Assembly: GCA_963842525.1 (NCBI GenBank)
Contig: CAWJGT010000009.1
Location: forward strand, 512,001-576,000
Origin: an uncultured Holophagales bacterium
Lineage (GTDB): Bacteria > Acidobacteriota > Thermoanaerobaculia > Multivoradales > UBA5704
DNA: 64,000 bases
Direction of reading: 5' to 3'
Below are positions 11,220-26,123 of this stretch, piece after piece; position 1 is the first letter of the stretch, and each line of letters starts with the position of its first letter. The translations under genes were made by a program, and so were the position numbers. The notes beneath the pieces were generated by a model. That model saw only the letters and a list, made by a program, of their open reading frames with translations, was not told the origin of the DNA and did not search any database.

Positions 11220-12964
<1,745 letters not shown>

Positions 12965-12979
12965 GGAAAGCCCGCTTCG

Positions 12980-13400
12980 CGGCCGGAGCAAGAGCGAAAC
13001 ACCAGGCAGCCGGCACCCTGGCCGGGCCGTCCGTCGCCCCGAGCACGATCCGCAGCACCAGCACGGCCGCGACGGAGAGGAGGACCGCTTTCGGATAGGG
13101 AGTCGTCGGCGCGATGTCGAGCAGCGCGAAGAAGACCACGACGAACGCCGGATGAGCAGCGTATCGAGCCCTGTGAAGTGGATCGCCAGCCGGCGGGTAC
13201 CGAGGAGTGCGACGGCGACGAGCGCTGTCACGATCAGGGTCGTGAGGCTGGTGGAGAACAGGAGCTTCGCCCAGAGAGCGGCAAAGAGAGAAGCAGCGGC
13301 CAGCCATCCGGCCCACGGGGCGGAGCCCCGGGCGGCGAACCGTACGGCGAGTGGGCGGGCGCAGAGCGCGCCGATCCCCGGGAGCGTTGGCGTTGACGAC
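12980..13400 (-). pseudogene. Frameshifted membrane-protein fragment
   Basis: Hydrophobic stretches in two minus-strand frames (WAGWLAAASLFAALWAKLL; AFVVVFFALLD); no start. Confidence 0.35.
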
Positions 13401-13842
13401 GCTCCAGGCATCGCCGCGCAGCCGGCCCGGCATGCCGTTGACGATGCGGGCGGTGAAGCGGCAGGTGCCGCCGGTGGACGGGATTTTTGATCGCAGCCTT
13501 CGCCGAGGTAGACACGGACGGGCAGCGACTTGAGCCGCACGTCGCCGGCGTCGTAGTGCTGGTCCTCGGCCGCTGCTGGTGTCTTTCCCTCCCGGAGCGC
13601 CGTTTCGGCAACTCGTTACCTGGGTCGTGCTCGCCGGCCAAACGACCTCGACCTGCAAGGCCTCAGTCCAAATCGTAGATGGTGACTTCCATGCTGATCG
13701 GCAAGCCGGAGCCAGAACTGTGGTCAAGGTTATGCGCAGTTCCGGGCGGGAGACTTTCGGCTGTAGGAATTCCGGTTTGTAACCTTCCTCTTCGTCCCTG
13801 GATTAATCTTCTATAGAGGGAGAAGATGAAAGGGCCGAGACC

Positions 13843-14490
13843 ATGAGCGAGCCGGAAATAGGACGGCTCGACCCGCAGGTGATCCTGGGTAGGCCGGGGT
13901 TGTCCTGGACGCCGACGGAGGTCGAGGTCATCTGCGATTGGTTGTTTGAGCCATCCCGCTATCGGCAATTCCTGCATTGGGGGGTACGCTTTCTCGGGCA
14001 GTACGCCGTCGCCGAGGACGCCGAGGATGCACTCTCCGAGTTCCTACAGAGCAGGCTGAAGGGAATCATCCGGAAGTTCGATCCTTCCAGGTTGTCCTTC
14101 TCAGGCTATCTCCTGGTCTGCTTCCGTCAGTTTTGCTCGCGTGCTCGCGTCCGCTTGGAGAAACGGGAAACGCGGCGGGCTCCTGGCCTCTGGCTTGTGC
14201 GGGAAGAGGAGCAGCAGACCATCGAGAACAGCCCGGAGCTCATCGTCGACAGTCGATTCGATCTCCACAGGAGTCTCGAAGACAAAGAGCAGGCGGAGGC
14301 GATCCGGCGCGCCCTTAAGGTACTCCCGCCCCAGTATTCGAGCGTGGTCGTCCTCCACCATTTCCAGGGCAAAAGTACAGCCGAAATCGCCCGGGAACTC
14401 GGGATTTCCGAGACAAACGCAAAGGTGAGACTGTTCCGCGCCCGGCATATGCTCTCGGAACGGATTCATGGCGAGGGTAAGAAAAAATGA
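13843..14490 (+). CDS. ECF-type RNA polymerase sigma factor
   Basis: Region 2 DAEDALSEF...FDPSRLSFSGYL; region 4 LPPQYSSVVVL..FQGKSTAEIARELGISETNAKVRLFRAR. Confidence 0.9.
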   Translation: MSEPEIGRLDPQVILGRPGLSWTPTEVEVICDWLFEPSRYRQFLHWGVRFLGQYAVAEDAEDALSEFLQSRLKGIIRKFDPSRLSFSGYLLVCFRQFCSRARVRLEKRETRRAPGLWLVREEEQQTIENSPELIVDSRFDLHRSLEDKEQAEAIRRALKVLPPQYSSVVVLHHFQGKSTAEIARELGISETNAKVRLFRARHMLSERIHGEGKKK

Positions 14491-16115
14491 ACGCCAGAAA
14501 CACAAAAAAGCATCTTCCGGACCTGCTGGCGGGCCTTCGCCTGTCGCCCCTGGAGAGGGTGGGGGATCATCTGACCGCCGAAGAGTTCGTCGGCTTCATG
14601 TTGGTCGAGGAGCACATTGCCACCTGCCCGAACTGCGCCGAGGAGGTGGAACAACTGACTGAGGCGGCAGAGGTGTGGCGGACTCCGGAGGCGGATAGCC
14701 GTCGCCTTGAGTTGCGCGACCGGATCAAGGAATCCTTGGCGGCGCAGCACGGCGGCCGGTATGGGGCAATCTTCCGTCCGGTCCGCCCGGAGCCAAGCCC
14801 CGATCCGGGACGTAGCACCAAAGAGTTCGGGACGTGGACAGAGCGCCCGGTCCCCTCCACTCGCCGGGCAGGACCGTTTCGCGTGTCCGCCAAGCCTGTG
14901 GTAGCCATCGATATCGGCTCCTCCAAGGTGGCGGTTCTCATCGGCCAGGTCGACAGCCGGGGAGATCTGGAGATCATCGGTAGGGGCCTAGCACCCAACC
15001 GGGGCACCCGGAAGGGGAACATCGTCAACGTCGAAGCGACCGTTGAGGCCCTCAAGGCGGCAGTCGAGGAGGCCGAAGTGATGGCCGGTGTTGAGATTTT
15101 TCGCGCCTATGTCGGGATAGCTGGTGCCGATGTCCGGAGTGTCAACTCGAAGGGCATGGTCTCCGTCGCCCGGAGCGACCAAGAGATCACCCGGGAGGAC
15201 ATCCTGCGGGTTCTCGACACGGCGAAGTCGGCTGCATTGCCGTCCGACCGCGAGATCCTCCACGTCGTGCCGCAGGAGTTTATCGTCGACGAGCAGGGCG
15301 GCATCGACGACCCGCTCGGCATGCTCGGCACGCGCCTCGAGGTCATGGTCCATCTCGTGACCGGCAACATCACTCGGTCGCGGACGCTCCTGACCTGCGT
15401 CAACCGGGCCGGCATCGAAGTCGTCGAGATGGTTTTCGAGCCGCTCGCCACGGCCGAGGCCGTGCTCACCCAGGACGAGCGCGAGCTCGGCGCCCTGCTG
15501 GTCGACGTCGGCGCTGGCACCACTGAATACGCCCTCTTCTCGAAGGGGGAGATCCAGTACAGCGGCGTGGCGCCGATCGGCGCCGGCCATTTCACCAACG
15601 ATCTGGCCATGGTGCTGCGCACGCCGTTCGCCGAGGCCGAGCGCATCAAGACCAAGCAGGGATGCTGCCTGCCGAGCATGGTCACCAACGACGAGGGGAT
15701 CGCGGTGCCGACTGTGGCGGGTAGCACATCGCGGATCGTCCCCAAGCGCGAGCTGTGCGAGATCCTGCAGCCGCGCGCCGAGGAACTGTTCAGCCTCCTA
15801 CGCGAGGACCTGCTCAAGCACTCGCCCGACGAGGACTTGCGCGGCGGCGTCGTGCTCACCGGCGGCGGCGCACAGCTCGATGGCCTGCTCGAACTCGCCG
15901 AGCAGATCTTCGACGCGGGCGTGCGCTACGGGCTGCCGCGCGGCCTGGGGGGACTGGTTGACGTGATCAGCAGCCCCTCCTGGTCGGCGGCCTCGGGACT
16001 GCTCCTCTATGCCCTCATCGCCGAGGAAGTGCAGCCACGGCCGCGGCAGAAGTCCGGGTTCGGCGTGCGCGGATTCGTGTCTTTTCTGCGAGGTATTTTC
16101 TCCGGGCTGCTGTAA
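14487..16115 (+). CDS. ftsA: Zinc anti-sigma (zf-HC2/ZAS-like) domain fused to full-length FtsA
   Basis: N-terminal EEHIATCPNC; then AIDIGSSK, VDVGAGTT, GVVLTGGGA and amphipathic tail FVSFLRGIFSGLL. Confidence 0.9.
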   Translation: MNARNTKKHLPDLLAGLRLSPLERVGDHLTAEEFVGFMLVEEHIATCPNCAEEVEQLTEAAEVWRTPEADSRRLELRDRIKESLAAQHGGRYGAIFRPVRPEPSPDPGRSTKEFGTWTERPVPSTRRAGPFRVSAKPVVAIDIGSSKVAVLIGQVDSRGDLEIIGRGLAPNRGTRKGNIVNVEATVEALKAAVEEAEVMAGVEIFRAYVGIAGADVRSVNSKGMVSVARSDQEITREDILRVLDTAKSAALPSDREILHVVPQEFIVDEQGGIDDPLGMLGTRLEVMVHLVTGNITRSRTLLTCVNRAGIEVVEMVFEPLATAEAVLTQDERELGALLVDVGAGTTEYALFSKGEIQYSGVAPIGAGHFTNDLAMVLRTPFAEAERIKTKQGCCLPSMVTNDEGIAVPTVAGSTSRIVPKRELCEILQPRAEELFSLLREDLLKHSPDEDLRGGVVLTGGGAQLDGLLELAEQIFDAGVRYGLPRGLGGLVDVISSPSWSAASGLLLYALIAEEVQPRPRQKSGFGVRGFVSFLRGIFSGLL

Positions 16116-16151
16116 GGACGGGAGCTGACTAGAAGCCGTGAGGTTAGGACC

Positions 16152-17420
16152 ATGATCCTGTTCGATGAAGACAGAACTCCTGAGGCAGTGGGGCCTGAGA
16201 GGCCGTGCGCCCCACAGGCGGAGGGCTCAGTTGTTCACATCAAGGTTATAGGCGTCGGGGGGGGGGGTGGCAACGCGGTTAATCGCATGATTGACGCCCG
16301 GCTCCGCGGAGTCGAGTTCATTGCCATCAACACCGACCTGCAGGCGCTGAACAAATGCCGGGCACCGGTGAAGCTCCCGATCGGCAAGTTGCTCACCAAA
16401 GGTCTCGGAGCTGGCGCTGACCCCGAGATTGGACGCAAGGCGGTCCTGGAGGATACTGAGGAAATCCTCAAGGTACTCGAAGGAGCGGATATGGTCTTCC
16501 TCACGGCTGGCCTGGGCGGCGGCACCGGCACGGGCGCAGTACCGATCATCGCCTCCCTGGCGGCCGAGGTCGGAGCGCTGACCGTGGCGGTGGTCACCAA
16601 ACCCTTCGGCTTCGAGGGCCGGCGCCGCATGCAATTGGCCGAGTGCGGGATCGAGGATCTGCGCAATTCGGTCGATACGCTGATCGCCATCCCCAACGAG
16701 CGCCTGCTCAACTTCGTCGAAAGGGGCACGCCGCTTTCCGAAGCCTTCCGCATCGCCGACGACGTACTGCGCCAAGCGGTGCAGGGCATCGGCGACCTGA
16801 TCACCATCCCGGGCGAGGTCAACGTCGATTTTGCGGACGTGCGGACGATCATGACCGGCATGGGCATGGCGCTGATGGGCACGGGCTTCGCGAAGGGCGA
16901 GCATCGGGCGATCGAGGCGGCGCAGCGGGCGATCTCCTCACCGCTGCTCGAAGAGACTTCGATCCAGGGCGCCAAGGGTGTGCTGATCAACATCTCCGGA
17001 GGCCTCGACCTGACGCTGCACGAAGTGGCCGAGGCGGCGCGCATCATCGCCGACGCGGTCGATCCGGATGCCAACATCATCTCAGGCATGGTGATCGATC
17101 CGCAGCTCGAAGAGACGATGAAGGTGACCGTCATCGCGACCGGCTTCGAACGCAGCCTCGACGTCGTCCGGCCATTGCCACCAGTGGTGAGCGTCCCGCG
17201 TTCGCTCTCCGCGCAGCCGGCCTACAACGCCCCATCGCCGGCCCCGGCGCTCGCCGCAGCCGCCGAGAGGGAGGAACCCGAGCGTTCGGCCGCGGACGTG
17301 CCGTTCTACCGCAAGGCCATCGCGCACCTGCGAGGGGACGACCCAAACGGCTTCGGCCCTAACTGGTTGAACGTGGACGACTACGATATTCCGACCGTGC
17401 TGAGGAAGCAGATGGATTGA
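16152..17420 (+). CDS. ftsZ: Cell division protein FtsZ, probably a second copy outside the dcw cluster
   Basis: [31 protein letters not shown]7 loop, C-terminal [11 protein letters not shown]. Confidence 0.96.
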
Positions 17421-17920
17421 TGGAGAAGATTGTGAATCGAGGTCGCCATCCGATGCTCCAACTCGAGCTTACTGACTCCTCGGCATCCGCTGCTAACCAA
17501 CCCCGCTGTCGAGGGAAGCAGTACGCCGCGGACTTCTTCATCTGTCACGCTTACGAGGACTGCGACTTCGCCGAGCTCCTCAAGATGAAGATCGAGGAGA
17601 GAGGCTACACGGCTTGGGTCGACACCGAAAGGCTCCGAGCCGGCAAGGATTGGCGGAGTGAGATCGACGAGGGAATCAGGGGTTGCTGTGCACTGATCGT
17701 GATTATGAGCCCAAATGCCAGGAAGTCGGAGTACGTGACCTATGAATGGGCCTTTGCATGGGGAGTGGGAGTCAAGGTGATTCCGATAGTGCTCAAGCCG
17801 ACGCCTCTGCATCCACGGCTTGAGGCGCTGCAGTATTTAGACTTCACAAACCGGGCGGGCCGGCCCTGGTCACGGCTCCTCGAAATGCTTGATGACGAGG
17901 CCCGGCAGGTGATTGGATAG
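17420..17920 (+). CDS. TIR-domain protein
   Basis: FFICHAYED, WVD, W..EIDEGI, SPNARKSEYVTYEW with catalytic-position Glu; TGATG overlap with ftsZ. Confidence 0.88.
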   Translation: MEKIVNRGRHPMLQLELTDSSASAANQPRCRGKQYAADFFICHAYEDCDFAELLKMKIEERGYTAWVDTERLRAGKDWRSEIDEGIRGCCALIVIMSPNARKSEYVTYEWAFAWGVGVKVIPIVLKPTPLHPRLEALQYLDFTNRAGRPWSRLLEMLDDEARQVIG

Positions 17921-18071
17921 CTGGAACCTTCAGGTCCGGCCTCCACGGCTCAGGAGAGTGCGCGGGAGGACGCGAAAGATCGCTGCGGAGGAAACGGGTA
18001 CGGAGGCGGGCACCTCTTCCATGAACGACGCCGGGAGGCATTTGGCTTTAGGCAAGTCGTGCCCGCCTCAC

Positions 18072-18254
18072 CTACCGCTTCTGATCGCCCCGGTCCCCTT
18101 GGCCCTTCGGAACCGTCGTCTTCGCTTTCTTTTTCCGATTCTGGCTGAGAGATTTGCCGACGTCGACCACTTCGGCGAACTGGCCTTTCTCGTTGCGCCG
18201 GACGTAGCGCTTGTCCGTTCCCGTGTCGATGAGCTCGCGCTTGGATGCTGCCAT
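18072..18254 (-). CDS. Small basic conserved-looking hypothetical protein
   Basis: RELIDTGTDKRYVRR..KGQF...VDVG.SL...GQGDRGD; AGGAG RBS. Confidence 0.7.
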   Translation of the reverse strand: MAASKRELIDTGTDKRYVRRNEKGQFAEVVDVGKSLSQNRKKKAKTTVPKGQGDRGDQKR

Positions 18255-18277
18255 GAGGTCTCCTTTCGGTCTTTATT

Positions 18278-18851
18278 TTATGCCGCCTTGTGGCTCAGGA
18301 GGCAGAGGGCATGGCCCTCGAGCTCTTCGGCGCGGTGGGTGGCGGTGTGCTCGCGCAGGACCCTGGCGCGGGCCCTCTGGCCGAGGGCGCGACGCTCGGG
18401 CTCTGGGATGTCCCGCAGGTAGCACAGGACGTCACCGGCGTGGCGCACGGTGAGGATCTCCTCGCCGATCTTGCAAAAGGAGCCGAGGCCCGGCCAGGAG
18501 TCGGAGAGGATCGGCGTTCCGCAGGCCGCGGCCTCGAAGAGCCGCACGCTTGGCAACCAGCCGGCCGCGATCATGTCGGCCCGCGTCATGGTCAAGCTGA
18601 AGCGCTGGGCGTTGTAGAAGCGCCGGTGTTTGGCGGGCGCCAAGTGCTGGAACCGCTTGACGCTCTTCGGCCAACGGATCGCCTTCGGATATTGTGGACC
18701 GGCCACCACGAAGCGCCCTTCGCTCCAGCGGCGCGCCGGCTCCACCAGCAGCCGGTCCAGCGGTCGGCTGGCGGTCGTCGCTGTAGGTGCCCATGTAGCC
18801 GAGGTCCCAGCGGTGCTCCACCTCTTCCGGATAGTAGGGGTCGGGATCGAG
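18278..18851 (-). pseudogene. CgeB-like glycosyltransferase 3' fragment
   Basis: DLGYMGTYSDDRQP, AGPQYP, PSVRLFEAAACG; frameshift near 18765; 5' end cut by the repeat. Confidence 0.75.
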
Positions 18852-19798
18852 CAAGCGGAAGGAAGCGCTGCGCGAGGCCGACCTGGTCCTCCTCGCGGGC
18901 ATCCCGAGCGACTTCCGCCTCGACTATGGCCGCCAGGTCGGCCGCAAGACCGAGCTGATCTCGGTCAACCGCAGCGAAGAAGACCTGCGGAAGAACCGCA
19001 AGCCGGACCTCGCCGTCCATGCCGATCCCGCCCTCTTCCTGCGCGGCCTCGCCGTGGAGCTCGGTGCAGAGAAAGGCGAGCGCTGGAAGGAGTGGCTCGG
19101 GGACCTGCGCACCCGCGACCTGCAGCGCGAGCGGGAGATCGGCCAGCAGGCCCAAGTCGCCCCGGAGGCCCCGGAGACCACGGAGACCCCGGAGAGCCCG
19201 GAGAGCCCGGAAGACACCGAGCTGGTCAACCCCATCCACCTCTGCCGCGAGATCGACCGCCTGCTCGCGCCGGACAGCGTCCTGGTGGCCGACGGCGGCG
19301 ACTTCGTGGCCACCGCCGCCTACACCGTGAGCCCGCGCAAACCCCTCTCCTGGCTCGACCCGGGCGTCTTCGGCACCCTGGGGGTCGGCGGCGGCTTCGC
19401 CCTGGGCGCCAAGCTCTGCCGGCCCGAGGCGGACGTCTGGATCCTCTACGGCGACGGCTCCGTGGCCTACAGCCTGGCCGAGCTCGACTCCTTCGCCCGC
19501 CACGGCGTCCCCGTCCTGGCGGTCGTCGGCAACGACGCCGCCTGGATGCAGATCGCCCGCGAGCAGATCGAGATCTTCAAGGACGACGTCGGCGTCGTCC
19601 TCGCCCGCACCGACTACCACAAGGTCGCAGAGGGCTACGGCGGCCGGGGCCTGGTGGTGACCCGGAACGCCGACGTCCGCGCCGTCCTCGAAGAGGCCCT
19701 CGCCCTCGTCCGCGCCGGCCACCCGATGCTGGTCAACGCCCACCTCGCAAAGACCGAGTTCCGCAAGGGCTCGATCTCGATGTAAGGAAAGCCCGCTT
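18852..19798 (+). pseudogene. Right repeat copy: 3' half of the TPP-enzyme gene with a 36 bp longer repetitive linker
   Basis: Near-identical to 12067-12977; VAPEAPETTETPESPESPEDT replaces TGTETLEDT. Confidence 0.93.
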
Positions 19799-20256
19799 TG
19801 CGCGCGCCGCGAAAGCCTTGGGGCAGTCATTGCCCTTCGGACGTGTGCCGCAGGACCCTGACAGTTTCGAGACGGACCTGGCCAGCAAAAGGCGACGTCT
19901 CTCCAATCAATTTGGCGCTCTGCCCAATGTGCCGCCGAACGATCCAGTCTTGCCGCCAAGTGGTGGCAGACCATTGCGGCATACCTGGAGCTAGTTAGAG
20001 AATTGGATTTGAAGCCTCAAAACGGGTATGATATGCCGCGAACAGTCGGCAAGCTCTCCCGAGTTTGGACGGGCCATGCCGCCTATTGCAGGAGACTCGC
20101 GGCAAATTGACCGGGAGTGGCACTCTCCAGTCCGGCAGTCGATACCTGCCTGGGTCTGGAAGACGGACGCTGGACCGGACCGCCCAGTAGCTGGCGCAAA
20201 GTCGCAGCCGGAGAGCCGCGAGTCGCCGCTCGTTGTTCGGGACAGGAGGAGGGTTG

Positions 20257-20763
20257 ATGCGAGCCAACCGATCCATTGCCGACCTTGTAGCCCGATTGGA
20301 GGCCCAGGCCGCCTTCCATCGGGAGCGGGAGGCCCTTCATGCCAAGCAGGAAGACCTGCACCGGCAGCAGCGCACCCACCACGCTGCCGAGCTCGAGCAG
20401 ATCGCCGTACGCCTGGACGCCTTCCGGTCCGCCTCCGCCGCCGTCCTGGAGCTCGCCGACCGGATCGTGCCTCCCGACCCTGGAGAAGACGGCGAGGACT
20501 TCGGCCCCGCCTACCGTCCCCGGCTCGGCCGGATGGTCAAGAGAGTGATCGAAGGCCTAGGCGAAACCGGCCGCTTCGGCCCCGCCTGGGTCACCAGCGA
20601 GATCAACCGCCGCTTCGGCCAGGGCCTCCGCAAACCCGTCAAGGCCCGCCAGATCTCGGTCGTCCTCCGCCGCATGCACCGCTACGGCCGCATCCACCTC
20701 GTCCGCGAGGGCCGCCCGCACCACGAGGCGCTGTACAGCCGGACGGCGGGTGGGGCGCGTTGA
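20257..20763 (+). CDS. Hypothetical coiled-coil plus winged-helix-like protein
   Basis: AGGAGG RBS; helical N-terminus, basic C-terminus. Confidence 0.65.
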   Translation: MRANRSIADLVARLEAQAAFHREREALHAKQEDLHRQQRTHHAAELEQIAVRLDAFRSASAAVLELADRIVPPDPGEDGEDFGPAYRPRLGRMVKRVIEGLGETGRFGPAWVTSEINRRFGQGLRKPVKARQISVVLRRMHRYGRIHLVREGRPHHEALYSRTAGGAR

Positions 20764-21609: not shown

Positions 21610-23130
21610 ATGAAGGGCATGAAAAACACACTCACGGCACTTTTCGTCACCCTGGCAAGCCTCTCTCTGGGTCATACCGCCCAGGCTCCTGCCGCGGCGC
21701 CGCTGGCGAAGGACGCCGCCTTCGAAGCCCGCATCCACCGCGTCGAGAACGGGCTGCTGCCGGCCGTCCTCGTCAAGGGCGCGCCGCCGGCAACGATGAG
21801 CCTGGCCGAGCGGATGCAGTTCTACAAGGTGCCGGGCGTGAGCGTCGCGGTCATCAACGAAGGCCGCGTCGAATGGGCGCGCGGTTTCGGCGTCAAGGAA
21901 GCGGGCAAGAGCGATCCGGTCACGCCCGAGACGCTGTTCCAGGCCGGCTCGATCAGCAAGCCGGTCGCGGCGCTTGCCGCGCTCCGCCTCGTACAGGACG
22001 GGCGGCTCAGCCTCGACGAGGACGTGAACGCGAAGCTCGTCTCGTGGAAGGTGCCGGAGAACGAATTCACCCGCGAGCAGAAGGTGACGTTGCGCCGTCT
22101 CCTGAGCCACACCGCCGGCCTGACCGTGCACGGCTTCCCCGGCTACGCGGCGGACGTGCCCGTGCCCACCGTCGTCCAGGTGCTCGACGGTACGAGCCCC
22201 GCGAGTCCTGCGAACCCCGCAAACACCGCGGCCGTCCGCGTGGACACCGTGCCTGGCACGCTGTGGCGCTATTCGGGGGGCGGCTACACGGTCATGCAGC
22301 AGCTCCTGGTCGACGTGACCCAAAAGCTGTTTCCCGACCTCCTGCAGCAAACAGTCTTCGAGCCGCTCGGCCTCCGCCACAGCACCTACGAGCAGCCGCT
22401 GCCCACGTCGTTTGCCGTACTGGCCGCGACCGCGCACAACAACGGCCAACCCATCCCGGGGCGCTGGCACATCTATCCCGAAATGGCCGCCGCCGGCCTG
22501 TGGACGACGCCCGCGGACCTGGCGCAGATTGCCATCGAGATCCAGCGCACCCTCGCCGGCCACTCCAACAAGATCCTGACACCGGCGACGGCGCGGCAGA
22601 TGGTCACCGTGCAGATGGAGGACTACGGGCTCGGGCCTGGCGTCGAGGGCACGGGCGCCTCTGCGCGTTTCAGCCACGGCGGCGTGGACGAGGGCTTCGA
22701 GGCCTTCTGGATCGCCTATGAGAGCACGGGGCAGGGCGCGGTCGTGATGACGAACGGCGCCGGCGGCACGGCCCTCGTCATGGAGGTGATCCGTGCGGTC
22801 GCGCGCGAGTACAAATGGCCCGACTTCGCACCCCAGGAGCGCGCGCTCGCCACCGTCGATCCCAAGACGCTCGCGGCCTACGCCGGCACCTACGAGCTCC
22901 GGGTGTCGCCGGAGCGCACCATCACGCTCGCTGTGACCAGCGAGCAGGGCAAGATCTACACCCTGCAGGAGGGCGGTTCGAAAAACGAATGGCTGCCGTC
23001 CTCCGAGACCGAGTTCTTCCGCACCGCCTCGGGGACCACCCTGCAATTCGTCAAGGACGAGCAGGGGCGCATCGGCGAGCTCGTCATCCATCAAGGCGGA
23101 CAGGACTATCGCGGGCAGAGGGTCAAGTGA
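21610..23130 (+). CDS. Secreted serine hydrolase (beta-lactamase class C-like) with C-terminal DUF3471-like domain
   Basis: Signal peptide; GSISK (SxxK), LLSHTAG, YSG, HGG motifs. Confidence 0.9.
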   Translation: MKGMKNTLTALFVTLASLSLGHTAQAPAAAPLAKDAAFEARIHRVENGLLPAVLVKGAPPATMSLAERMQFYKVPGVSVAVINEGRVEWARGFGVKEAGKSDPVTPETLFQAGSISKPVAALAALRLVQDGRLSLDEDVNAKLVSWKVPENEFTREQKVTLRRLLSHTAGLTVHGFPGYAADVPVPTVVQVLDGTSPASPANPANTAAVRVDTVPGTLWRYSGGGYTVMQQLLVDVTQKLFPDLLQQTVFEPLGLRHSTYEQPLPTSFAVLAATAHNNGQPIPGRWHIYPEMAAAGLWTTPADLAQIAIEIQRTLAGHSNKILTPATARQMVTVQMEDYGLGPGVEGTGASARFSHGGVDEGFEAFWIAYESTGQGAVVMTNGAGGTALVMEVIRAVAREYKWPDFAPQERALATVDPKTLAAYAGTYELRVSPERTITLAVTSEQGKIYTLQEGGSKNEWLPSSETEFFRTASGTTLQFVKDEQGRIGELVIHQGGQDYRGQRVK

Positions 23131-23198
23131 GCGGCTGCCCTGTGAAACAATTCGGGGAGATCTCCCACGGAGGGTAGAGGCGTTCACACGGAGGGCCG

Positions 23199-24181
23199 AT
23201 GCTCAAGATCCTGATCTCGGGTGGGTTCAACGAAGAAGACAAGAAGTCCCTCGACGCCGTGCAGACGTTTGCGCGGCACCTGGGGGAGCAGGTCGTGCGC
23301 AGGGGGCACACCCTGTTGAGCGGCTGCCGGACGAGCCTGGATGCAGTGGTGGCGGAAGGGGCCGGCGCGGCTGCCGAGGACCTGAAGCTGGAGCCGGAGA
23401 CCCGGCTCATCAGCTATGTGATGGCCGGAGAGCAGCAGGCGTTCGGCCGCGGCAGCGTCCTCATGTCGCGGCTGAGCGATTGGGAAGCGGGAGCCCGCGC
23501 CTGCGCGTTCCGGAGCCGATCGAACAAGCGGACGCGGTCATCCTCCTCGGCGGCTTCAAGGGGACCCACCGCGCCGCGAACTGGGCCCGGATCGCCAGGA
23601 AGCCGATCCTGCCCATCCCGCGCTTCGGCGGCGCCGCGAAGGACATCTATCACGAAGAGCTCGACTCGTTCCGGGCCTCGCATCTCGAACAGAGCGACTT
23701 CGAATCGCTCTCGGAGATGACCCCCGATCTCGAAAAGCTGGCAGGCCGGATCATCAGCCTGGCCGAGAAGGCCTGCATCTCCAGCAATGTTTTCGTGATG
23801 ATGTCCTTTTCGGAAGAGCCGGCCCTGGCGGATGCTCTCGAGTCGTTCCAGACGGTCTGCGACCGCTTCGGTTATCGGTGTCGCCGGATCGACGAGGAGA
23901 ACGATGTCGAACGGATCCTGCCGGAGATGCTGTCGCGCATCCGAAACTGCGCCTTCGTCATCGCCGATCTGAGCGAGCCGAGGCCGAACGTCTACTATGA
24001 GCTCGGCTACGCGGAGGGACAGGGCAAGCCGCTGATCGTCACGGCGAAGAAGGACACTGTGCTGCCCTTCGACACCAAGGACATCCCGGTGATCTTCTGG
24101 GAGAACCAGAAGGGACTCAAGGACAAGCTCGCCAAAAGGGTGGCCCACATCGCGGCCCGGCAGGGGCGGTCGGCTGCCTGA
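23199..24181 (+). CDS. SLOG/LOG-like domain fused to nucleoside 2-deoxyribosyltransferase-like domain, frameshift near 23485
   Basis: ADAVILLGGFKGT...PILPIPRFGGAA; VFVMMSF...VIADLSEPRPNVYYELGYA. Confidence 0.75.
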
Positions 24182-24314
24182 AGCTATCGTGTGAGAAAAG
24201 CGCTCGTCACCCTGCTCATCGCGCTGGCAGGCCTGTCCGGCTGCCTTGACGCGCAGGCGCCGCCGAGTAAGTGAGCCGGACGATCCATCCCCTTCCTGCT
24301 GGTAAGATCGCGCC

Positions 24315-24512
24315 ATGGCTGAACAAGGCTCTGCTGGAAACGTCCTTGCCGCCCTTGCGAGCTTCTTCATCCCCGGATTGGGACAGCTCCTTCAGGGGCG
24401 CGTGCTCGTGGCGCTCGTCCACTTCGTGCTGGCAGGCGTACTGTGGATCTTCTTGCTGGGCTGGATCGTCCACATCTGGTCGATCATCGACGCGGCACGC
24501 TGGAAGGCGTAA
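24315..24512 (+). CDS. Small membrane protein
   Basis: LASFFIPGLGQLLQGR, two hydrophobic segments. Confidence 0.75.
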   Translation: MAEQGSAGNVLAALASFFIPGLGQLLQGRVLVALVHFVLAGVLWIFLLGWIVHIWSIIDAARWKA

Positions 24513-24565
24513 ACGGGTCCACATGACCTCGGCGGTGAGCCCAGGCGTTCAGGGGGAGTGACAAT

Positions 24566-24970
24566 ATGCGACTGGATATCTATTTGAACTATCGCGGGAA
24601 CTGCGAAGAGGCGTTCCGCTTCTACGAGCAACACCTTGACGGCAAGATCACGGGGATCGTACGGCATGGGGAACAGCCCAATCCGAGCATCCCGGCTGAT
24701 TGGAAGGAAAAGGTCCTTCACGCCCGCATCGAGATCGGCACAACAGTGCTCATGGGTGCGGACATTCCGACCGCCGAACCGATGCGAAGCGCCTACCTGA
24801 CGCTCACTCTGGATCGTGAGGAGGACGCGGAGCGCGTATACGCCCTGCTTGCGGACGGGGGTGAAATCTTCATGAAGATGGAGAAGACACCCTTCGCCAA
24901 TCGCTTCGCCATGCTCAGGGACAAGTTCGGCACGTCTTGGATGCTCCTTCATCAACCTGGCGGAGCGTAG
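24566..24970 (+). CDS. VOC/PhnB-family protein
   Basis: YLNYRGNCEEAF.FY, LHAR, DKFGTSW. Confidence 0.9.
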   Translation: MRLDIYLNYRGNCEEAFRFYEQHLDGKITGIVRHGEQPNPSIPADWKEKVLHARIEIGTTVLMGADIPTAEPMRSAYLTLTLDREEDAERVYALLADGGEIFMKMEKTPFANRFAMLRDKFGTSWMLLHQPGGA

Positions 24971-25001
24971 AAGGTTCCGGAACCGTCATAGGGGCCGAGG
25001 C

Positions 25002-25066
25002 CGGTCAACGGCACCGAGGCTGATCAGCGGCGAGGCGTTGCTGACGACGGTCAAGATCGGCCGAGG
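25002..25066 (+). repeat. 65 bp direct repeat, second copy at 27912-27976
   Basis: cggtcaacggcaccgaggctgatcag...gttgctgacgac..tcaagatcggccgagg. Confidence 0.85.
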
Positions 25067-25067
25067 A

Positions 25068-25481
25068 TCACCCACGCAGCTCTAGCGTGTAGTTCCAACC
25101 GAGGAACGAGTCTATATGGCGGACGAGCCGGAAGGAGACGCCCAGCCGGGGCGAGCGTAACCAGCCGCCTACACTGGGCCTGACTCGTGTGTAGACACCA
25201 CCCTTGAGGGTGTGGATGTCGAACCGGTCGATGAAGAGATATCCGAGCTTACGTTCGGCGATCAGGATGCCGAGGCCCAGCGCGAAAGCGCTTTTGACGA
25301 GGCTGTGCGTCGAGATCTCTTCCGGGCTCATGTCCGCATCCACGTCGCCCGCCAGGTAATCGATGCGCCCGTTCTCGGGGAAGGTGTCCGACTGCGCCCA
25401 CCTCCGGAAACCCTCGAAGGTGAAGGCGGCGGCCGGTATCTGGAAGCTCCCCTTGGACGAAGCTGCGTGCGCTCGAGCCAT
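25068..25481 (-). pseudogene. Uma2-family endonuclease with internal deletion
   Basis: FRRWAQSD.FPENGRIDY..G...DMSPE...H; the central PD-(D/E)xK region appears missing after FIDR. Confidence 0.6.
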
Positions 25482-25608
25482 GAGACGATCTTACTCCACT
25501 CGATCTGTGTTCCGTTGCGGAACAAGATGCCTGGAGAGCCTGAAGAGGTGCAACCCGCTCCGGGGGTGACGGCTTGACGAAATGGGAGACCTGTGGAAAC
25601 CTTGAGCC

Positions 25609-25797
25609 ATGACGGACGCTGCCCGCCGGATCGTCGAGACGTTCGAGGCACTGCCCGAAGAGGACAGGCAGACTGTTGTCGTAGAGATCCTTCGCCGGAC
25701 CGCGGCCGATGTCTACCCAGCCCTGGAAGATAAGGATCTCGTGCTCGCGGCCGAGCAGGTATTCCTTGAGCTCGATCGCCGCGAGCAAGAGGAGTGA
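25609..25797 (+). CDS. Putative antitoxin
   Basis: 62 aa acidic ORF overlapping the MazF-like gene by 4 bp. Confidence 0.72.
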   Translation: MTDAARRIVETFEALPEEDRQTVVVEILRRTAADVYPALEDKDLVLAAEQVFLELDRREQEE

Positions 25798-26123
25798 GAT
25801 CTCCGCAAAGGGGCGAGGTCTGGCTCGTCGACCTCGGCCAGGCCGCCAAAGTTCGCCCCTGCCTCGTCCTGAGCATCCCTCTGGAGGACATTGACCGGGC
25901 CTTGGTCACTCTCGTACCCCATACGACGAGCCTCCGGCACTCTCGCTTCGAGGTCTCTCTGCGAGCGCACTTCCTCCGCCCCGGCGGATTTGATGCGCAA
26001 AACCTGGTAACGGTCCCAACCGCGAAATTGCTGCGGCTCCTTGGCAGACTGGCCCCGGCACAGCTTTCCGAGGTCGAAGCGCGAGTGCGCACCTGGTTGG
26101 GCCTTGCGGATCGACAAGGCTGA
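25794..26123 (+). CDS. mazF: PemK/MazF-family toxin
   Basis: RGEVWLVDLG..AKVRPCLVLS...VPHTTS. Confidence 0.88.
   Translation: MRSPQRGEVWLVDLGQAAKVRPCLVLSIPLEDIDRALVTLVPHTTSLRHSRFEVSLRAHFLRPGGFDAQNLVTVPTAKLLRLLGRLAPAQLSEVEARVRTWLGLADRQG

Follow-up and report, generated by a model that had tools for sequence, protein, structure and literature searches.

Can a division protein control a sigma factor from within the same polypeptide? The question is raised by a locus in a 64,000-nucleotide (nt) stretch of DNA from an uncultured Holophagales bacterium of the Acidobacteriota (contig CAWJGT010000009.1 of GenBank assembly GCA_963842525.1, positions 512,001 to 576,000 of the forward strand; this whole stretch is referred to as the window, and coordinates are those of the window). 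An open reading frame (ORF) at 14487-16115 on the plus strand encodes, in a single uninterrupted frame, a protein of 542 residues with three parts: an anti-sigma domain (ASD; residues 1-95, 14487-14771), a disordered linker rich in Pro, Arg and Ser (residues 96-132, 14772-14882) and a complete FtsA (residues 133-542, 14883-16115), here termed FtsA'. The ATG of this ORF overlaps by 4 nt (ATGA) the TGA of the preceding gene (13843-14490, plus strand), which encodes a sigma factor of the extracytoplasmic function (ECF) type, and there is a GAGG nine nt before the ATG; the sigma gene is thus translationally coupled to the fusion gene. After a gap of 36 nt the fusion gene is followed by a gene for an FtsZ paralogue of 422 residues (FtsZ', 16152-17420, plus strand), the stop codon of which overlaps (TGATG) the start of a gene for a TIR-domain protein of 166 residues (17420-17920, plus strand). 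The four genes are packed like an operon and lie apart from the housekeeping division and cell wall (dcw) cluster. An earlier note on this DNA, made without database searches, had described an anti-sigma-type zinc motif fused in frame to FtsA after an ECF sigma gene, and all of the items that it listed are present in the sequence. From the homology searches, structure predictions and trees described below we propose, with moderate confidence, that the ORF encodes a real, rare chimera, namely a class I zinc-motif anti-sigma factor in which the usual C-terminal domain has been replaced by an FtsA paralogue and which would bind the ECF sigma factor encoded upstream.

The anti-sigma domain and its sigma factor

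The N-terminal part of the fusion has a family of its own. A word-indexed protein search with residues 1-135 returned only the window protein itself, a limit of sensitivity made plain by a HMMER search with residues 1-132 against 1.84 billion cluster representatives, which returned 42 proteins at E ≤ 0.001. They comprise 39 proteins of 80-311 residues, two further fusions (P0002 and P0003) and one spurious match, a protein of 1,105 residues that was rejected as a relative, only the low-complexity linker having been aligned. The short homologues align over window residues ~4-100, with 29-47% identity in the ASD. Three of them (P0004-P0006), matching the window domain at phmmer E-values of 2.5e-10 to 1.4e-9, were scanned against Pfam and all pass the zf-HC2 cut-off (28.0, 22.4 and 24.7 bits, respectively), zf-HC2 and RskA_N being their only matches. 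Strongly hydrophobic 19-residue windows are absent from 36 of the 40 non-fusion matches (a number that includes the 1,105-residue non-relative), and the standalone homologues are probably mostly soluble. The best profile matches of the ASD family in the PDB are DdvA (8rlz, E 0.012), RslA (3hug_B, 0.015) and ChrR (2q1z, 0.21).

The sigma factor itself (215 residues) has a conserved N-terminal extension before region 2 and is of the ECF type, with regions 2 and 4 only and a TIGR02937 score well above the cut-off (73.8 versus 42.9 bits); region 4 is matched by Sigma70_r4_2 at 63 bits and the region 2 match is weak (17.6 bits versus a cut-off of 24). Five orthologues were found at 53-70% identity, all of them metagenomic, and from these there are probably a few more loci of this kind on short contigs. 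The pairing of the two genes recurs on a contig (L052) of an Acidobacteriota metagenome-assembled genome, where a standalone ASD homologue of 224 residues, 38% identical to the window domain, lies directly after and overlaps a sigma gene. The product of that gene aligns with the full-length window sigma, the unusual N-terminal extension included, at 32% identity (E 1e-24). Since L052 pairs both homologues, the two types travel together. The same contig also carries a truncated second sigma copy just upstream of the complete pair (L052:1003-1380), 33% identical to the window sigma over residues 9-107.

The zinc-type motif of the window domain, HIATCPNC (H43-x3-C47-x2-C50, residues 43-50, 14613-14636), is maintained throughout the family. 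In the 39 aligned members H43, C47 and C50 are invariant (39/39), position 28 (14568-14570 in the window) is His in 37 and Cys in two, and P21, G26, L29 and W64 are nearly invariant. In class I zinc-motif ASDs the first His or Cys ligand stands ~23-26 residues before the motif, whereas in the window fusion H28 and H43 are separated by 14 residues, exactly as the earlier note had counted. The spacing is 14 in all three fusions, compared with 24 in 35 and 26 in one of the 36 other members. In the alignment, therefore, the short spacing reads as a 10-residue deletion that is common to the three fusions and marks the fusion family, and from this shared deletion we argue that the anti-sigma part of the fusions had a single origin.

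AlphaFold2, given the 39-row family alignment, predicts ASD helices at residues 4-18, 31-46, 48-64 and 67-87, with a predicted local distance difference test (pLDDT) score of 93-97 over residues 31-80. In this model the tail is unstructured from residue 95 and the linker has a pLDDT of 58-67. In the model of the full-length protein the FtsA core folds, residues 88-134 fall below pLDDT 50, and there is a C-terminal helix at 527-541. Co-folding of the sigma factor (alignment of 6 rows) with residues 1-100 of the fusion (39 rows) gave an interface score (ipSAE) of 0.75 (0.74, 0.77 and 0.75 in the separate runs) compared with 0.01 for the best of three controls, with a partner pLDDT of at least 62 and agreement between runs over at least 49% of the contacts. 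Of 157 solved complexes 116 attain the mark so passed, as do 2 of 215 mismatched pairs, although these counts are only rough where custom alignments are used. The predicted interface places ASD residues 52-64 and 69-88 against sigma residues 24-76. According to a study of class I ASDs, it is helix 4 that contacts region 2 of the sigma factor (PMC7406223), and the predicted interface, which is on sigma region 2, therefore matches this mode of binding. On the strength of this modelling we propose that the ASD binds region 2 of the neighbouring sigma factor. The assignment of the N-terminal part to an ASD by the earlier note is borne out by the homologues that pass zf-HC2, by the pairing on L052 and by the co-fold with the neighbouring sigma factor, which is clear of its controls.

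A second FtsA/FtsZ pair

The C-terminal part of the fusion is an FtsA by every profile used. It matches TIGR01174 at 423.1 bits (cut-off 175.85) over residues 138-508, and in Pfam it matches FtsA at 133.9 bits (PF14450) and SHS2_FTSA at 106.4 bits (PF02491), the SHS2/1C domain being residues 213-292. The C-terminal amphipathic helix (residues 527-541, 16065-16109) has a hydrophobic moment of 0.59, where the 95th percentile for 15-residue segments of the dcw FtsA is 0.49, and FtsA' is predicted to keep the membrane-targeting function of this helix. FtsZ' likewise matches Tubulin (163.4 bits, PF00091) and FtsZ_C (121.5 bits, PF12327), and its last 15 residues are identical to those of the dcw FtsZ, so that the conserved C-terminal peptide is kept. 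The tubulin signature of FtsZ' is the classical GGGTGTG, and the housekeeping FtsZ (C25:254820-256082) reads GGGTGGG at this position.

The earlier note took the window gene for the FtsA of the cell, and here it has to be corrected. The source genome (9.95 Mb in 34 contigs, 96% complete, 3.4% contamination) contains two full FtsA matches, and the second FtsA, with its FtsZ, is on contig C25 (C25:253518-256082) at the end of an apparently complete dcw cluster. The ORFs of this cluster can be read as mraW through murC, ftsQ, ftsA and ftsZ (420 residues), those upstream having been assigned by inspection of their order and initial residues; the FtsA is listed with 417 residues and probably has 412, counted from an ATG. 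Because this dcw ftsA-ftsZ pair is present on C25, and because a sigma gene precedes the window copy, the window FtsA is a second, faster-evolving paralogue and not the housekeeping FtsA. The window pair resembles the dcw pair in its domains, gene order, FtsZ C-terminal peptide and type of C-terminal amphipathic helix, but differs from it in lying outside the dcw cluster, in having lost the native ftsA start and in carrying the ASD. At the amino acid level the two copies are 86% identical over the FtsA core and 84% identical over FtsZ, and their DNA similarity (84%) is confined to ~14907-17420, beginning at the first FtsA strand and ending with the ftsZ stop codon. The linker has no homology to the sequence that precedes the dcw ftsA (best local score 14, compared with 11.3 +/- 1.5 and a maximum of 17 for shuffled sequences).

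Two FtsA matches were found only in the source genome. Among 40 relatives (5 of the same genus, 19 of the same family and 16 of the same order) 39 have one FtsA match above the cut-off and one genome, 82% complete, has none. In trees FtsA' is sister to the dcw copy of its own genome (support 96/83), as is FtsZ' (SH-aLRT 91), and the branches of the window copies are 5-6 times longer than those of the dcw copies (0.24 versus 0.043 for FtsA, 0.36 versus 0.058 for FtsZ). FtsA' has 19 private changes at alignment columns that are at least 90% conserved, where ordinary FtsAs have 0-9, and both FtsA' and FtsZ' keep the invariant residues of their families. The ratio of nonsynonymous to synonymous divergence (dN/dS) between the copies is 0.21 for FtsA and 0.15 for FtsZ, with housekeeping orthologue pairs within the genus at 0.12-0.21, and from these values FtsA' and FtsZ' are shown to be under purifying selection, if somewhat relaxed. 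In 60-codon segments the synonymous divergence of the two copies varies from 0.12 to 0.82 in ftsA and from 0.22 to 1.34 in ftsZ, an unevenness in keeping with an older duplication that gene conversion may have refreshed in part.

With a second, 84% identical ftsAZ copy in the same genome, a mis-assembly, or else a sequencing indel, could in principle have joined two separate genes. The longest exact match between the copies, however, is 59 nt at 15603-15661 and none of 25 nt or more occurs before 15387, which makes a chimeric assembly join at the junction unlikely, and two independent assemblies from other sources (JGI and Logan) show the identical architecture. We consider an artefact of either kind very improbable.

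A different question is whether the cell makes one protein from this ORF or two. The earlier note had pointed to an in-frame GTG at 14883 with an AGGA upstream, where native FtsA would begin, and this site is indeed present: codon 133 (14883-14885) is GTG, the AGGA (14870-14873) precedes it by nine nt, and in alignment the housekeeping FtsA has its Met opposite S134, the next codon. Production of two isoforms in meaningful amounts, the 542-residue tethering form and a plain FtsA' of ~410 residues from GTG 14883, has this position next to the native start in its favour. Such motifs are common, however. Of 4,548 in-frame internal start-like codons in 357 confident genes on this contig, 460 (10%) carry one, or ~1.3 per 250 codons, and ORF 14487-16115 itself has six internal sites of this kind. 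Nor is the site conserved, since in P0002 and P0003 the residue equivalent to codon 133 is not Met or Val. The suggestion of two isoforms made in the earlier note is thus not supported, without being refuted, given a site at background frequency that is not conserved in the other fusions and a long form with its own GAGG and ATGA coupling. A short isoform is possible, and nothing in the sequence indicates it beyond chance; synthesis of both forms in meaningful amounts we regard as unlikely.

Recurrence, surroundings and alternatives

The search for homologous fusions that the earlier note had recommended yielded two more, both with the same architecture. P0002 (528 residues) comes from one JGI contig of 4,588 nt and P0003 (524 residues) from one Logan contig of 1,962 nt. 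Each consists of an ASD, a linker of ~40-50 residues and a complete FtsA with FtsA and SHS2 domains. Overall identity to the window protein is 58% for P0002 and 49% for P0003; over the ASD alone it is 52% and 35%, respectively. The linkers hardly align, with only a weak pattern, S-[ST]-x4-G-[ST]-x-E, common to the three. Two further diverged proteins of identical architecture take the fusion itself beyond chance, and a maintained protein is favoured by a frame that is open in three sequences of 49-58% identity, in spite of linkers that can barely be aligned. Scans of metagenome and genome contigs with a profile of the three fusions gave, among the matches listed, only generic zinc-motif anti-sigma loci plus L052; no relative was found on viral contigs, and a protein atlas returned only ordinary FtsA clusters (score 0.80). 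Full-text searches of the literature yielded no paper on an anti-sigma-FtsA fusion or on an FtsA with such an N-terminal domain, and the word FtsA does not occur in the main text of either the paper on ECF re-classification (PMC7826278) or that on class I anti-sigmas (PMC7406223).

Among the FtsA cores, that of P0002 falls inside the family of the source genome, on a long branch, and a single clade of the three cores is not rejected by the approximately unbiased (AU) test (p 0.27). The other fusion cores have 5 (P0002) and 2 (P0003) of the 19 private residues of FtsA', proportions similar to those of control FtsAs (e.g., 3/4). The cores may go back to a single origin followed by conversion, or else the local ftsA may have been captured more than once.

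The four genes lie within a 5,870-nt stretch (12982-18851) with a GC content mostly of 0.56-0.67, compared with 0.70-0.73 in the flanks. This island is bordered by a direct repeat, the two copies of which (12067-12981 and 18852-19802, both on the plus strand) are 94% identical over 951 alignment columns. The left copy is the 3' part of an intact gene for a thiamine-pyrophosphate enzyme, which ends at 12964, and the right one is a truncated 3' copy of that gene (TPP_enzyme_C in ORF 19054-19785). Same-genus orthologues of the gene are only 77-83% identical to the repeat, compared with 94% between the copies, and the repeat therefore arose within the lineage. In five genomes of the same genus the sequence downstream of the thiamine-pyrophosphate enzyme gene has nothing in common with either side of the island, and no empty site is shown by them; the island is a rearranged, variable spot. 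The stretch upstream of the sigma gene (12982-13842), across which GC drops from 0.71 to 0.58, is without a Pfam-recognisable gene. A minus-strand ORF of 271 residues (12912-13727) has no Pfam match, and within 12982-13700 overlapping minus-strand ORFs, also without a Pfam match, have hydrophobic stretches like those of membrane proteins in two frames; they are possibly remnants of a degraded gene. The stretch presumably holds the promoter of the operon. A scan for sigma-70-type promoters found no promoter-like site in 12982-13842, the single site found being inside the FtsA core, and inspection by eye upstream of the sigma gene revealed no convincing ECF-type promoter.

Several other features are found at and beyond the right end of the island. 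Between the TIR gene and the right repeat are a Lys-rich ORF of 60 residues with no family match (18072-18254, minus strand) and a C-terminal fragment of a Glyco_trans_1_2 glycosyltransferase (18278-18745, minus strand; 112 bits). Past the repeat, nucleotides 20247-20748 within an ORF of no known family (20233-20763) have three DNA copies, 80-85% identical, on contig C13 of the same genome, so that this segment is a repeated element or belongs to a gene family. A variable gene set at 21610-26123 encodes a beta-lactamase-family protein with DUF3471, a weakly nucleoside 2-deoxyribosyltransferase-like protein and a glyoxalase-family protein, as well as a PemK/MazF-type toxin (ORF 25794-26123).

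These surroundings lend themselves to a neutral explanation, in which insertion of a spare ftsA-ftsZ pair after the 5' portion of a gene for a soluble anti-sigma factor happened to preserve the frame and the joining of the two parts serves no function. The products would then be a short FtsA' made from GTG 14883 (or no working FtsA') and at most plain soluble anti-sigma function. In its favour, the island is a mosaic that contains gene fragments and has repeats on both sides, the module was not found in the 40 relatives, and the internal GTG with its AGGA stands just one codon before the housekeeping Met position. By a rough estimate, moreover, a 40-codon junction would be in frame and stop-free by chance in about 1 of 8 cases at 67% GC. 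It has against it that three proteins at 49-58% identity have kept the frame open through nearly unrecognisable linkers and have the ASD deletion in common, that P0002 and P0003 are without Met or Val at the internal position while the GTG/AGGA site is at background frequency, and that FtsA' and FtsZ' are under purifying selection. We judge a neutral by-product to be rather unlikely.

A number of results weigh against the chimeric anti-sigma factor that we propose. The first concerns distribution. The three fusions are singletons and the only ones among 5.8 billion 90% clusters (3 of 7,999 scored candidates in a profile search). In the phylum the fusion profile matched one of 401 genomes, that of the source, and was absent from the 400 others, and in the 40 relatives the N-terminal part was not found, the three marginal matches (E 0.003-0.007) including two with internal stops. 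Segment identities among the FtsA cores of the three fusions are no higher than those with ordinary FtsAs, and the island, with its gene fragments and its 94% border repeat, resembles a rearrangement scar. Other points concern the ASD itself. The zf-HC2 (PF13490) scan suggested by the earlier note was favourable for the homologues P0004-P0006 but not for the window domain, which scored 19.0 bits over residues 1-132 and 13.6 bits in the whole protein, below the cut-off of 22.2, with the sub-threshold match covering residues 40-51. The E-values of the PDB profile matches are marginal (0.012-0.2), yet these best matches agree in being anti-sigmas, and a Foldseek search of the isolated ASD against the PDB gave no match at E ≤ 0.001. 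In the co-fold the confident contacts are confined to sigma region 2, with none to region 4, and the pass may in part reflect memory of, or likeness to, solved sigma/anti-sigma complexes. Lastly, with the 10-residue deletion predicted helices 1 and 2 run on as a single helix, and for this reason H28 probably cannot share a metal with H43, C47 and C50, so that the zinc site may be altered. All three fusions have a His or Cys near residue 9, a stretch in which 7 of 36 standalone members have either residue, and one might speculate that it replaces H28 as ligand.

The last gene of the operon raises the possibility of a defensive function. Its product matches TIR_2 at 87.6 bits (cut-off 28), the gene has the lowest GC of the island (0.56-0.60), and its start is coupled to the ftsZ' stop (TGATG). 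If FtsA' and FtsZ' served as bait, attack on FtsZ or FtsA by a phage or a toxin would free the sigma factor and raise expression of the TIR effector and possibly of other genes. Besides the TIR-type matches obtained with PADLOC, such a guard or decoy function would be in keeping with the lower-GC, variable region and the MazF-type toxin gene nearby, and there is a precedent in Myxococcus xanthus, where the ECF sigma/anti-sigma pair DdvS/DdvA is reported to control a defence island (PMC11506125); DdvA is also the best PDB profile match of the ASD family. On the other hand, PADLOC applied to six neighbouring proteins gave only generic TIR matches and no partner such as ThsA, so that the genes do not amount to a named TIR defence system (Thoeris). 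FtsA' and FtsZ' also evolve faster than the housekeeping pair, the opposite of what a faithful bait would need. We therefore regard a guard or decoy as decidedly unlikely. Its fullest form, a bait-and-switch sensor in which a phage agent or toxin that inhibits division disrupts the polymers and the freed sigma factor turns on the TIR effector together with a wider response, is a long shot; if true, the operon would stand guard over the bacterial cytoskeleton by means of a sigma factor.

Proposed mechanism and significance

We return to the chimeric anti-sigma factor, and put forward a hypothetical mechanism by which it may act. In the fusion the C-terminal domain of a soluble anti-sigma factor would have been replaced by a complete FtsA paralogue, held through a flexible linker of ~40 residues. 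We propose that the sigma factor is sequestered on FtsA' through the ASD, either at the membrane or on polymers of FtsZ or FtsZ'; the earlier note, too, had suggested that the sigma factor could be tethered to membrane-bound FtsA filaments, so that transcription would report the state of the divisome. Since FtsA' has kept the membrane-binding helix and FtsZ' the C-terminal peptide by which FtsZ binds FtsA, the amount of free sigma would depend on the state or location of FtsA' and FtsZ'. Alternatively, the sigma factor could be released when H43/C47/C50 are oxidised or lose their metal, or when the exposed linker is cleaved. Once free, it would activate the genes of its regulon, among them probably those of this operon.

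In its basic design this arrangement follows that of known class I systems. In ChrR/sigma-E (2q1z), RslA/SigL (3hug), DdvA/DdvS (8rlz) and RsrA the anti-sigma gene likewise lies directly after, and overlaps, the ECF sigma gene. These zinc-motif anti-sigmas have H-x3-C-x2-C at the turn between helices 2 and 3 and the next helix on sigma region 2, as is predicted for the window ASD. The window fusion differs from them in its spacing of 14 rather than 23-26, its extra N-terminal helix and its Pfam score below the cut-off, and it has neither a transmembrane segment nor a known sensor domain, its C-terminal partner being a whole FtsA. It also differs from its standalone homologues (P0004-P0043 and the 224-residue protein of L052), which have a C-terminal part of their own of 100-190 residues and the 24-residue spacing. 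In the class I study ~35% of the ASDs are predicted to be soluble, and 72% of those carry the zinc motif (PMC7406223). Soluble class I anti-sigmas with other C-terminal domains are thus already known, and what sets the fusion apart is FtsA as the partner.

ECF sigma/anti-sigma pairs are among the commonest signalling devices of bacteria, and to our knowledge the signal is not known for most soluble anti-sigma factors. The locus described here offers a testable case in which the state of a polymer, binding to the membrane or location at the divisome could gate a sigma factor within one polypeptide. The small size of the fused domain, with its partner encoded next door, makes the central claims open to ordinary binding and transcription assays. 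A working analogy is found in Bacillus subtilis, where SpoIIE is reported to link activation of sigma-F to the division septum (PMC10990147): in both cases a protein that controls a sigma factor would be placed by the FtsA/FtsZ machinery and transcription would follow division. It should be noted that SpoIIE is a membrane phosphatase in a partner-switching cascade, not an ASD, is not fused to FtsA and has no homology to the fusion. B. subtilis reaches with the separate SpoIIE system a result comparable to the one that may be achieved here by a single chain. Finally, a second ftsA-ftsZ pair, linked to a sigma factor and maintained by selection in addition to the housekeeping pair, is relevant to the question of how division proteins come to be duplicated and re-used.

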